From: Escherichia coli
Lineage (GTDB): Bacteria; Pseudomonadota; Gammaproteobacteria; Enterobacterales; Enterobacteriaceae
DNA: 1,956 nt
Direction: 5' to 3' (one strand)
NCBI RefSeq assembly: GCF_003334765.1
Contig: NZ_QOWT01000076.1
Positions 1 through 1,956 of this stretch are shown here, piece by piece. Numbering within the stretch: position 1 is the stretch's first letter; every line of letters starts with the position of its first letter. The position numbers and the translations under genes were made by a program. The notes beneath the pieces were generated by a model that worked only from the letters and a program-made list of their open reading frames with translations, did not search any database and was not told the DNA's origin.

Positions 1-533
1 TTCTGGCAACCCATCGCATCAGTTGTGATGATTTTTCCTTTAATATCCAGCATGTTAAGAAGTTCAGGGATAGCTGTGATCTCATTGGATTTCTTATCCG
101 TCTTGATCTGCCCGATGACCAGACTGTGCATTGTTGAGAACGCACTAATGACATGAATCGCTCCCCTGCGGCGACTCTTGTCATAAGAGTGCCGGAGCGT
201 TTTTCCATCAATTGCAATGACGTCTTTATCATTTGATGAATGGCAATCACGCATCCAGTTAATAAAGCACTCGTGAAATTTTGCAGGACTGATACAGGAT
301 ACAACTCTGGCAATAGTATCGTGAACAGGAATACCATTTTCAAAATCACCATATTGCTTCAAGAAATCGAGATGTGTTTCCCCGAAATCCTCTATATCTT
401 CCCAACTTTCTGCACCAGAAATAACGGCAAAAATAGTCAATAGTAGGATGCCTGACAATTTATGCTCTACTTTCCAGGCTTATCTGTAATCGGGAATAAT
501 AGAAATATGTTCCATCAATTTTTTAAGTTCCAT
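1..533 (-). pseudogene. ISAs1-family (H-repeat-associated type) transposase, N-terminal ~177 codons, 3'-partial (runs off the window start); interrupted by an in-frame TAA at codon 18
   Basis: Hand translation of the minus strand from the ATG at 531-533 gives MELKKLMEHISIIPDYR, then TAA (plus 480-482), then in the same frame [159 protein letters not shown], open to position 3. The pattern IxDxR...K.EHxLxxILLL..xAVISGA.xWxxIExFG ... GIPxHDTxxRV is the DDE_Tnp_1-associated N-terminal domain of ISAs1-family transposases. No minus-strand stop occurs in this frame between 479 and 1. Confidence 0.85.
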
Positions 534-538
534 TTGTT

Positions 539-544
539 CACCTT
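539..544 (-). promoter_or_regulatory. Ribosome-binding site for the transposase gene
   Basis: Minus-strand AAGGTG (plus-strand cacctt at 539-544), 5 nt upstream of the ATG at 533. Confidence 0.5.
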
Positions 545-758
545 ATTTATGTAAGGAGTATTTGATCATGTATAAGCTATGAAAAACAGCTTTAGGTAAT
601 AAGGAATATCTCAATTTTTAAACATAAAATGCGAATTATTTAGTACAAAAAAGTAGCGTTACGTGATCTTTCCCTGCAAATGGAACGCAAAATAAACACC
701 TATTCCATGAGTTATATAATTTTTCACAATGATTAATTTGTTTTCTCAGGAAGAGATT

Positions 759-1328
759 TTATTTCTCTTCACTACGAATTAGTTCATGCTGTATCTTTAT
801 TAAACATTCGTAAGACTCATTTTTGTTCGGGAGATGTGCTGTCATTCGAGCATAAGTTGGTTTCTCATCTTTAAAATATTTTACCATGATTGAATTATCA
901 AGGACTGCCAACAACTGAACTGGATCACTGCTCTTTTTTTGATAGATACCCGCTCTTATATAACTTCTAAACCGATCGCCGAGAAACGCCGTTTTTTCTG
1001 CTGTATTTATCAACTCCTGCAACGTTCCTTTGATGGCATGATTTTCATTAAGGCGTAGTGACCCGACGCGAATTAAGAGTCTCGCCCCGCTTGGTGTGAA
1101 TTTATTATTTTTACATGTACCCAGTTCTGTTTGCCAATAATACTCACCGATGTCCTCATTCTGATACCATCTCCACATGGCTTTATTATTTAAGACAGGA
1201 AACGCGGAAAAAATAGTACCCTTAGCGAAAATAGTAAAACAATCATGATCTTTAGCTTGTATTTCGCAATCAGCTATAACACCAAAACTAACAAATATCA
1301 TCAGCAAAAAGAACAAAACTCTTTTCAT
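759..1328 (-). CDS. Putative cognate immunity protein for the Rhs CT toxin; Sec-exported periplasmic protein (189 aa precursor)
   Basis: Track ORF 759..1328 (-). Its ATG (1326-1328) overlaps the toxin TGA (1325-1327) as ATGA. N-terminus [19 protein letters not shown]|DCEIQ has a basic n-region, a hydrophobic h-region and a V-I-A signal peptidase I site. An SD-like AGAGGAA lies 6 nt upstream. The gene is AT-rich (hand-sampled stretches about 28-43% GC). Position immediately 3' of a polymorphic toxin CT is the canonical immunity position. Confidence 0.75.
1272..1328 (-). other. Predicted Sec signal peptide of the immunity protein (19 aa, cleavage after VIA)
   Basis: [19 protein letters not shown] followed by DCEIQ. 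There is no lipobox: the residue before Cys is Asp, not G/A/S, so signal peptidase II processing is unlikely. Confidence 0.65.
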
Positions 1329-1956
1329 TTTCTTATTCCTCTCGATGTTCTCTGTTTCATCTTAGCTAAAATTTCACCCAAATCATCTATCCCTGCTGTT
1401 GCTGGCCCATCGGGTTTATTAATGTCTGGGAATAAATAGGGTTCTGCACAAGTATATCCTGGTGGTAATTGAGTTGTTGGCCAATTTGTCTGTGGCAGGT
1501 AATCACTTGCTGTCTTTGTATCCATCCCTGGATACTGGGAATCATCCTGTGGCGTACAAGTCAGATTTGGTTTTACCCACTTCCTGCAATACAGTGTGTA
1601 GTCGTAAGGGCTTAATGCTCTGAAGAATGTTTTGAAAACATTAGGCGCACTACTGGCCTGGTCAATAGGATATGGCAGTCTTAATTGTTTCGCTATGTCC
1701 GGCAATTTACTTGGATCGGGCGTAGGCGGTTTGTTGGGTCTCGCTCCATATCCGCCATTATTTAAGTGTCCATATTTTGATGCCAGTCCCATTGAATCTA
1801 TATACTGAACCGGATTCAGCGGATACTGATAAAAATTCCATCCCCCCTTCAGCCCAATCGGATCCTGAGTGATATACCTCCCCTGCAGCGGGTCATAATA
1901 GCGGTGGCGGTTGTAATACAGGCCGGACTCCTCATCATACTGCTGCCCCGGCAGGC
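1325..1956 (-). CDS. Rhs family (YD-repeat) protein, C-terminal fragment: end of the conserved core plus variable CT toxin domain; 5'-partial, continues beyond the window end
   Basis: The minus-strand frame of the 155-aa track ORF stays open from its Met (1790-1792) up to position 1954 with no stop. Hand translation of 1793-1954 gives [54 protein letters not shown], followed by [14 protein letters not shown]... This matches the hallmark end of the Rhs repeat-associated core ([12 protein letters not shown]...QDPIGL.GG.N.YQY..NP....D..GL). The Met at 1792 is therefore internal, not the true start. Stop TGA at 1325-1327. Confidence 0.9.
1328..1783 (-). other. Variable Rhs C-terminal toxin domain (152 aa) of unknown activity
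   Basis: Sequence after the GL junction: [152 protein letters not shown]. It sits exactly where Rhs CT toxins sit and is followed by a coupled small ORF. I see no HExxH, HxxxH or other canonical nuclease/peptidase motif, and the single His precedes all three Cys. Confidence 0.7.
1335..1341 (-). promoter_or_regulatory. Ribosome-binding site for the immunity gene
   Basis: Minus-strand AGAGGAA (plus-strand ttcctct at 1335-1341), 6 nt upstream of the ATG at 1328, located inside the 3' end of the toxin coding sequence. Confidence 0.5.
1784..1813 (-). other. Rhs core/CT junction motif (PxxxxDPxGL-type; here [10 protein letters not shown]), the predicted autoproteolytic demarcation site
   Basis: Ten codons, P(1811-1813) V Q Y I D S M G L(1784-1786), with the same spacing as the PxxxxDPxGL motif that ends Rhs cores, except that Ser replaces the Pro after Asp. 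Confidence 0.75.
1814..1956 (-). other. Conserved Rhs core terminal region (partial), relatively GC-rich
   Basis: Encodes ...[43 protein letters not shown]. Hand-counted GC for 1793-1956 is about 52% (86/164), clearly higher than the downstream CT and immunity sequence. Confidence 0.85.

Follow-up and report, generated by a model that had tools for sequence, protein, structure and literature searches.

Does the fall in GC content that runs from an Rhs core through its C-terminal tip (CT) to the adjoining gene separate DNA segments with different histories, or is it a by-product of other properties of these genes? The question is raised by a 1,956-nt stretch of Escherichia coli DNA (contig NZ_QOWT01000076.1), referred to here as the window. 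The initial annotation of this stretch described a stepwise fall in GC content across core, CT, and immunity gene, and took the last two to be a horizontally acquired cassette. Our analysis gives strong grounds for regarding the fall as the boundary of two DNA segments with different histories: a conserved Rhs core and an exchangeable, AT-rich cassette of CT and partner gene, present here as a displaced rhs-CT/ybfC module. A step in composition, a break in homology, and the occurrence of one tip in three genomic contexts were each observed directly.

A displaced rhs-CT module in the RhsC element

The window covers the distal portion of the RhsC element of E. coli, with all genes on the minus strand (Table 1). 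Many complete E. coli genomes, among them that of ML35, match it at 100% identity. Between ybfA and ybgA, ML35 carries a full-length rhsC, an IS5 that disrupts the 3' region of this main rhsC, ybfB, a partial Rhs annotated as "missing N-terminus", ybfC, and two ISAs1 pseudogenes. The order in K-12 MG1655 is rhsC-ybfB-ybfO(pseudogene)-ybfC-ybfQ-ybfL-ybfD, of which the window corresponds to ybfO'/ybfC/ybfQ-ybfL. Based on the partial annotation in ML35 and the position of the ybfO pseudogene in K-12, the Rhs sequence in the window is a displaced orphan fragment, ybfO, and not an active rhs gene. Indeed, the fragment has the makeup of an orphan, or dissociated, rhs-CT module and not that of a full-length Rhs effector, which would span approximately 1400 aa and possess a translation start as well as an N-terminal domain. 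Its sole start is an internal ATG without an evident Shine-Dalgarno sequence.

Table 1. Features of the 1,956-nt window and the basis of their placement.
Feature	Position	Strand	Basis or remark
Rhs core end of orphan fragment (K-12 ybfO-like), last 57 codons	1784..1956	minus	ORF leaves window at right end
Rhs C-terminal tip (CT), 152 aa + stop; GC 43.2%, GC3 0.34	1325..1783	minus	translation
Rhs ORF stop codon	1325-1327	minus	
ATGA overlap of Rhs stop (TGA) and ybfC start (ATG)	1325..1328	minus	ORF coordinates
ybfC, 189 aa, candidate immunity gene; GC ~37%, GC3 0.34	759..1328	minus	named YbfC in 100%-identical genomes
YbfC predicted signal peptide, residues 1-19 (MKR, hydrophobic stretch, V-I-A)	1272..1328	minus	family conservation
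AT-rich spacer, ybfC to H-repeat, 28.4% GC	541..758		
H-repeat / ISAs1-family transposase pseudogene, 5' part	1..533	minus	leaves window at left end; NF033564
Compositional change-point zone	1805..1881		maximum likelihood + permutation; best 1842 (GC), 1844 (GC3)
End of nucleotide homology, orphan fragment vs main rhsC	1796..1810	minus	blastn + base-by-base alignment

The end of the core was placed using two profile models. NCBIfam NF041261 (RHS_core, E 7.7e-32) and TIGR03696 (E 2.5e-20) both aligned to residues 1-57 of the fragment and both ended at residue 57, so the core ends at window position 1784, at DSMGL. This demarcation motif is a variant, with D-S-M-G-L in place of the D-P-x-G-L of PxxxxDPxGL. 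In the identical ML35 locus, 354 core residues lie upstream of the tip, corresponding to 1062 nt of core. The orphan core and the main rhsC are 97.5% identical at the DNA level over 1036 nt (blastn), and the corresponding HSP stops at window position 1796. In a base-by-base alignment, the identity breaks approximately 27 nt before the core end, inside the last nine core codons. The main rhsC core ends in PISNIDPLGL, and the orphan core differs there.

At the opposite end of the window, the H-repeat transposase matched NCBIfam NF033564 (transpos_ISAs1) with an E-value of 1e-64 and 218.7 bits against a cut-off of 70. The gene opens with an ATG at 533-531 and is inactivated by an in-frame TAA at 482-480, which the ML35 annotation gives as an 'internal stop'. 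A search against Rfam returned no match.

One cassette in three genomic contexts

In ML35 and K-12, near-identical cores are followed by unrelated tips and unrelated partner genes, namely rhsC-CT/ybfB and ybfO-CT/ybfC. A comparison of strains, which the initial annotation had proposed as a way of finding alternative cassettes, therefore yielded different cassettes behind the same core. The distribution among 5,426 complete E. coli genomes is uneven as well: 3,615 (67%) carry the tip and ybfC, and 1,811 lack them. The displaced configuration, recognised by its ybfB-to-orphan junction, was found in 2,643 of the genomes.

The same tip occurs in two contexts besides the displaced one. In O157:H7 86-24, it is joined directly to the full-length rhsC of that locus, without the ybfB-type tip. 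In AR_0015, a 96%-identical copy ends an intact Rhs of 1395 aa at the nikR-yhhJ (RhsB) locus. Across the three contexts, the core end, CT, and ybfC are 96-99% identical, and the population data are thus a clear example of one tip in three settings. In MB06021, the module has been lost, beside an IS1 element.

Diverged relatives of the cassette behave similarly. In Phytobacter ursingii, a pair of CT and YbfC homologues forms a second orphan behind an Rhs with a DUF4329 tip, and on a metagenomic contig, such a pair occurs on a VgrG-linked Rhs. In loci L003 and L004-L006, YbfC homologues of 60-67% identity lie directly 3' of CT homologues of 72-75% identity. GC-rich cores and AT-rich tips recur in the Phytobacter and metagenome loci. 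The CT and its downstream gene are therefore inherited together as a unit, as is characteristic of Rhs toxin/immunity pairs.

In the history that we propose, cassettes would enter by homologous recombination inside the conserved core. An incoming unit of core fragment, CT, and immunity gene would take the place of the resident tip and shift the latter downstream. At this locus, the incoming unit appears to have been rhsC-CT/ybfB and the displaced one ybfO-CT/ybfC. Equally, recombination between the 97.5%-identical core repeats could delete the intervening DNA and return the orphan tip to the full-length gene. The O157 arrangement could be either ancestral or such a derived deletion. We infer the direction of these events, and likewise that the CT acts as a toxin and that YbfC confers immunity.

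The compositional step and its causes

The GC values in the initial annotation were accurate. For the 164 nt at 1793-1956, given as about 52%, we computed 52.4%; for the CT stretch at 1441-1500, given as about 45%, we computed 45.0%; and for ybfC, sampled at 28-43%, windows of 60 nt ranged from 30 to 43%. What the values had been taken to represent requires adjustment. The segment 1793-1956 had been treated as core, but its 52% is the mere shoulder of a step: the core proper has a GC content of 60-64% and a GC3 of approximately 0.73-0.75, and the core ends at 1784 and not at 1793. In addition, the span assigned to the fall, 1325-1956, leaves out the immunity gene that it was meant to describe (759-1328). 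Over the whole locus, GC content runs from 60-64% in the core fragment to approximately 43% in the CT (43.4% for 1328-1792), approximately 37% in ybfC (36.7% for 759-1328), and 28% in the spacer.

Change-point analysis located one step. Using 1325-1956 alone, the single GC change point fell at 1842 and separated 42.6% on the tip side from 60.0% on the core side, a contrast reached by 23 of 1000 permutations. The GC3 change point fell at 1844 (0.35 and 0.76) and was reached by none of 1000. For the full orphan fragment, whose part beyond the window was supplied by the identical ML35 locus, the step was again at approximately 1842 (GC 39.5 and 61.7%; LLR 51.5; 0 of 200 permutations), with GC3 values of 0.35 and 0.75. 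The 2-log-likelihood support intervals were 1834-1881 for GC and 1805-1877 for GC3. On the AT-rich side, the best further split, at 1391, was reached by 99 of 500 permutations. Thus, the stepwise fall described in the initial annotation holds as one significant step near the core end, and its second step, from CT to immunity gene, is unsupported, GC3 being equal in the two genes.

The drop begins approximately 60 nt inside the core and precedes the core end and the break in homology by some 30-60 nt. The boundary in composition is thus not in precisely the same place as that of recombination, although the offset is near the limit of resolution. Ten intrinsically AT-rich codons lie between the change point and the break and may be the source of the offset. 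The drop includes synonymous sites and lies near the core end, as in a mosaic of GC-rich core and AT-rich tip. The main rhsC shows the same pattern, with GC content decreasing from 61.9% to 44.9% at its tip and to 31.5% in ybfB. The step is also present in loci L003, L004, L007, and L008. For annotation, the GC step and the homology break together mark the stretch as a displaced RhsC tip cassette and not as an active gene.

Codon usage was evaluated against 13 flanking genes (GC 54.1%, GC3 0.59), which served as the reference for Karlin's codon bias, B, with null maxima obtained from pieces of equal length cut from these genes. The CT (B 0.75; null maximum 0.49) and ybfC (GC 36.9% in this comparison, B 0.56; null maximum 0.44) were both atypical in this test, which the initial annotation had proposed. 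The orphan core was atypical too (GC 60.4%, GC3 0.73, B 0.46; null maximum 0.34). Core and tip therefore both depart from E. coli usage, in opposite directions, with the core on the GC-rich side; to look foreign is not a property of the tip alone. Taken with the step, the three contexts, and the linkage of CT to its downstream gene, codon usage bears out the view that a GC-rich core is followed here by an exchangeable AT-rich cassette. The junction does carry a step, and related genomes do differ in the tip they hold.

Horizontal acquisition, as proposed in the initial annotation, holds in so far as the cassette moves between cores and loci; a recent import does not follow from its composition. 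Diverged homologues of the cassette, at 60-75% protein identity, still have GC3 values of 0.33-0.41 versus 0.56-0.68 in the flanking genes of their hosts, and those of the CT at 72-75% identity are among them. Since low GC3 has been kept in homologues whose synonymous sites must be saturated, AT-richness seems to be a lasting feature of the pool of tips and is not proof of recent import. Our search for an AT-rich donor found none: all carriers found were Enterobacteriaceae with genomes of 50-57% GC.

These data bear on a different reading, in which the low GC content of tip and immunity gene is maintained by selection (e.g., through H-NS-type silencing or low expression) and is not a foreign signature, the cassette perhaps being old in Enterobacteriaceae. 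Besides the persistence of low GC3, it is favoured by the wide occurrence of the E. coli tip at 96-100% identity in two-thirds of the genomes (67%), and by an AT-rich trough after every Rhs core examined. Selection, silencing, or a local bias could maintain the AT-richness. However, maintained AT-richness is compatible with exchange between loci and offers no alternative to it, and exchange was observed directly in O157:H7 and AR_0015. In addition, a scan for promoter- and terminator-like sites found nothing above the expectation from shuffled sequence. We consider this reading to be less likely than not, though it is the strongest of the competitors. Stable AT-richness leaves the evidence for movement of the cassette between cores and loci unweakened.

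A by-product of amino-acid composition, silent on origins, is much less probable still. According to this explanation, the fall would reflect a core rich in Gly, Arg, Asp, and Pro and a tip and YbfC rich in Lys, Asn, Ile, and Phe. It does account for the difference between the CT and ybfC: GC3 is 0.342 in the former and 0.337 in the latter, and the CT has GC1 and GC2 values of 0.46 and 0.49, compared with 0.43 and 0.34 for ybfC. The gap between 43% and 37% thus sits in codon positions 1 and 2 and mirrors amino-acid composition. Such an effect predicts that the gap recurs in homologous cassettes, and it does (44.7-47.6% in the CT; 36.8-38.7% in the YbfC homologue). The first 10 AT-rich codons of the drop likewise encode a peptide whose codons are intrinsically AT-rich. 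At the boundary of core and CT, however, it is the third positions that change most, from 0.75 to 0.35, and codon bias relative to the flanking genes exceeded that of every null sample. GC3 thus refutes amino-acid composition as the cause of the main step and leaves it standing for the minor second difference only.

Finally, that the main step arose by chance or from hand-sampling of short stretches is practically inconceivable: the core sample in the window is just 164 nt, the core and CT inside the window differ with p = 0.055 in Fisher's test, and the second step fails its permutation test, but the permutations for the main step and its replication at the main rhsC tip and in four further loci refute this reading.

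The CT/YbfC pair among known Rhs modules

The GC fall is the ordinary, long-described composition break of Rhs elements and was already known. Hill and co-workers, and Wang et al. 1998, reported that the conserved core is GC-rich and that the core extension is AT-rich and highly divergent, as relayed in PMC2935791. The K-12 RhsC element (rhsC-ybfB-ybfO-ybfC-H-rpt) has the same locus, gene order, and GC contrast of core and extension as the window; apart from the IS5 of ML35, nothing substantive is different. The fall is therefore a textbook feature that adds nothing new to biology, and the functional thread of this locus is the CT/YbfC pair with its predicted exported partner.

Dissociated tips downstream of rhs genes have been recognised by a GC peak and core homology (Jackson et al. 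2009, PMC2935791) and explained by C-terminal displacement via homologous recombination (PMC2935791). The present module resembles them in consisting of a partial core and tip behind a full-length rhs, with near-identical cores and unrelated tips, and in that the same tip occurs on a full-length gene in other strains. According to Jackson et al. 2009 (PMC2935791), the clade I loci of E. coli are generally without dissociated tips, whereas the RhsC element carries one here, displaced in ~2,643 of 5,426 genomes.

Poole et al. 2011 (PMC3150448) found orphan rhs-CT/rhsI modules joined in other strains to full-length genes, and according to Koskiniemi et al. 2014 (PMC3967940), recombination with the main rhs can activate such modules; the repeat of Salmonella LT2 spans 522 bp with an identity of 95%. 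Like these modules, the fragment in the window lacks an N-terminus and is followed by a small ORF. The near-identical repeat shared with the main gene is 1036 nt at 97.5% identity, longer and more similar than that of LT2, and could allow the orphan tip to be joined onto the main rhs. Toxicity, immunity, and activation by recombination have been demonstrated for modules of Salmonella and Dickeya; ybfO-CT/YbfC is a putative pair.

The CT is presumed to be a toxin domain from its position behind the Rhs core. It had no match in Pfam, NCBIfam, or PADLOC beyond that core. Pfam searches with the CT and YbfC gave insignificant hits only: RPN13_C (E 0.43) and OCRE (E 0.019), the latter falling in the core portion of the query. 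Among 1.84 billion proteins, the CT family is small, with 28 clusters at the 50% identity level. Members with upstream sequence always follow an Rhs core end, and several members are short fragments. Residues S58, P59, C66, W69, C76, P107, C112, A130, and D134 are invariant; they include three cysteines, and the conserved core of the family reads SPYDY...C...W...C...P.GY.C. An AF2 model of the CT, of poor quality, had no structural neighbour and matched no solved fold.

YbfC is a candidate immunity protein on the basis of its position and linkage; it had no match in Pfam, NCBIfam, or PADLOC. Our literature search on ybfO and ybfC found no functional study and no report of toxicity or immunity, and in an in silico paper on EHEC, no function is assigned to the RhsC tip or to the neighbouring gene. 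The YbfC family is restricted to Enterobacteriaceae and has four invariant cysteines. The predicted, cleavable signal peptide is conserved in 21 family members; C21 is invariant and A19 almost so, and the AF2 model has a pLDDT below 50 over residues 1-18.

Since YbfC is predicted to be exported, a toxin target in the cell envelope is suggested. It is possible, and we propose tentatively, that the ybfO-type CT and YbfC constitute an envelope-acting Rhs toxin/immunity family that is so far uncharacterised; if true, the pair would represent a new periplasm-targeting toxin activity delivered by Rhs. In the studies of Salmonella and Dickeya, the immunity proteins were expressed as cytoplasmic proteins, whereas YbfC carries a predicted signal peptide.

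The CT family and its demarcation motif

The family of the CT, the presumed toxin tip of the orphan Rhs fragment, is very small, comprising 28 clusters at 50% identity among 1.84 billion proteins; no domain or fold was assigned to it. Three cysteines of the CT are invariant; it also has an SPYDY motif, and its C-terminal tail is basic and closes with R-K. In every family member whose sequence reaches upstream of the CT, the tip is preceded by the end of an Rhs core. The demarcation motif closing the core of the orphan fragment (window 1784-1810) carries D-S-M-G-L, as compared to the canonical PxxxxDPxGL. Since DSMGL is also present in the Phytobacter homologue and one other relative, the variant travels with the CT's tip family.

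Coordinates of features in the window and in related loci (L001, ML35; L007, O157:H7; L008, AR_0015; L009, MB06021)
Feature	Location	Remark
H-repeat / ISAs1 transposase gene, inactivated	window 1-533	in-frame TAA at 480-482
ybfC	window 759-1328	presumed immunity protein gene
Predicted YbfC signal peptide, residues 1-19	window 1272-1328	conservation over 21 homologues
CT	window 1325-1783	tip of orphan Rhs fragment
ybfB	L001 14876-15202	partner gene of main rhsC tip
IS5-like element (ISKpn26 family)	L001 15427-16407	ML35, outside window
Further small genes 3' of ybfC	L007 7674-8730; L008 5173-8757	O157:H7; AR_0015
IS1A element and ybfC remnant	L009 10001-10777	strain MB06021

Predicted export of YbfC and possible target of the main RhsC tip

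A predicted signal peptide at the N-terminus is conserved among 21 YbfC homologues, in which four cysteines (C21, C30, C72, and C175) are invariant. Together, these features imply that YbfC would be an exported, disulfide-bonded protein; if so, its presumed partner toxin possibly acts in the periplasm. The ybfB gene, whose GC content is only 31.5%, encodes a 108-residue product that is very hydrophobic and resembles a multi-span membrane protein. Based on this character, the main RhsC tip may also be directed at the membrane or envelope. In ML35, the IS5-like element lies between main rhsC and ybfB, parting the tip from its partner gene and shortening rhsC at its 3' end, to 1380 codons versus 1397 in K-12.

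Decay and neighbourhood of the module

In one strain, MB06021, a deletion has removed the orphan fragment and left only 63 nt of ybfC, a remnant that adjoins an IS1A element. This shows IS-mediated decay of the orphan tip/ybfC module. Within the window, the transposase gene is inactivated at codon 18, the in-frame stop; its remainder matches NF033564 (E 1e-64), and the region is annotated in K-12 as ybfQ / ybfL (pseudogene). In O157:H7 and AR_0015, the additional small genes downstream of ybfC bear the annotations NTF2-fold immunity protein and DUF6258, and AR_0015 additionally harbors another partial Rhs fragment and yibA. The ML35/K-12 arrangement lacks these extra arrays of orphan and immunity genes.
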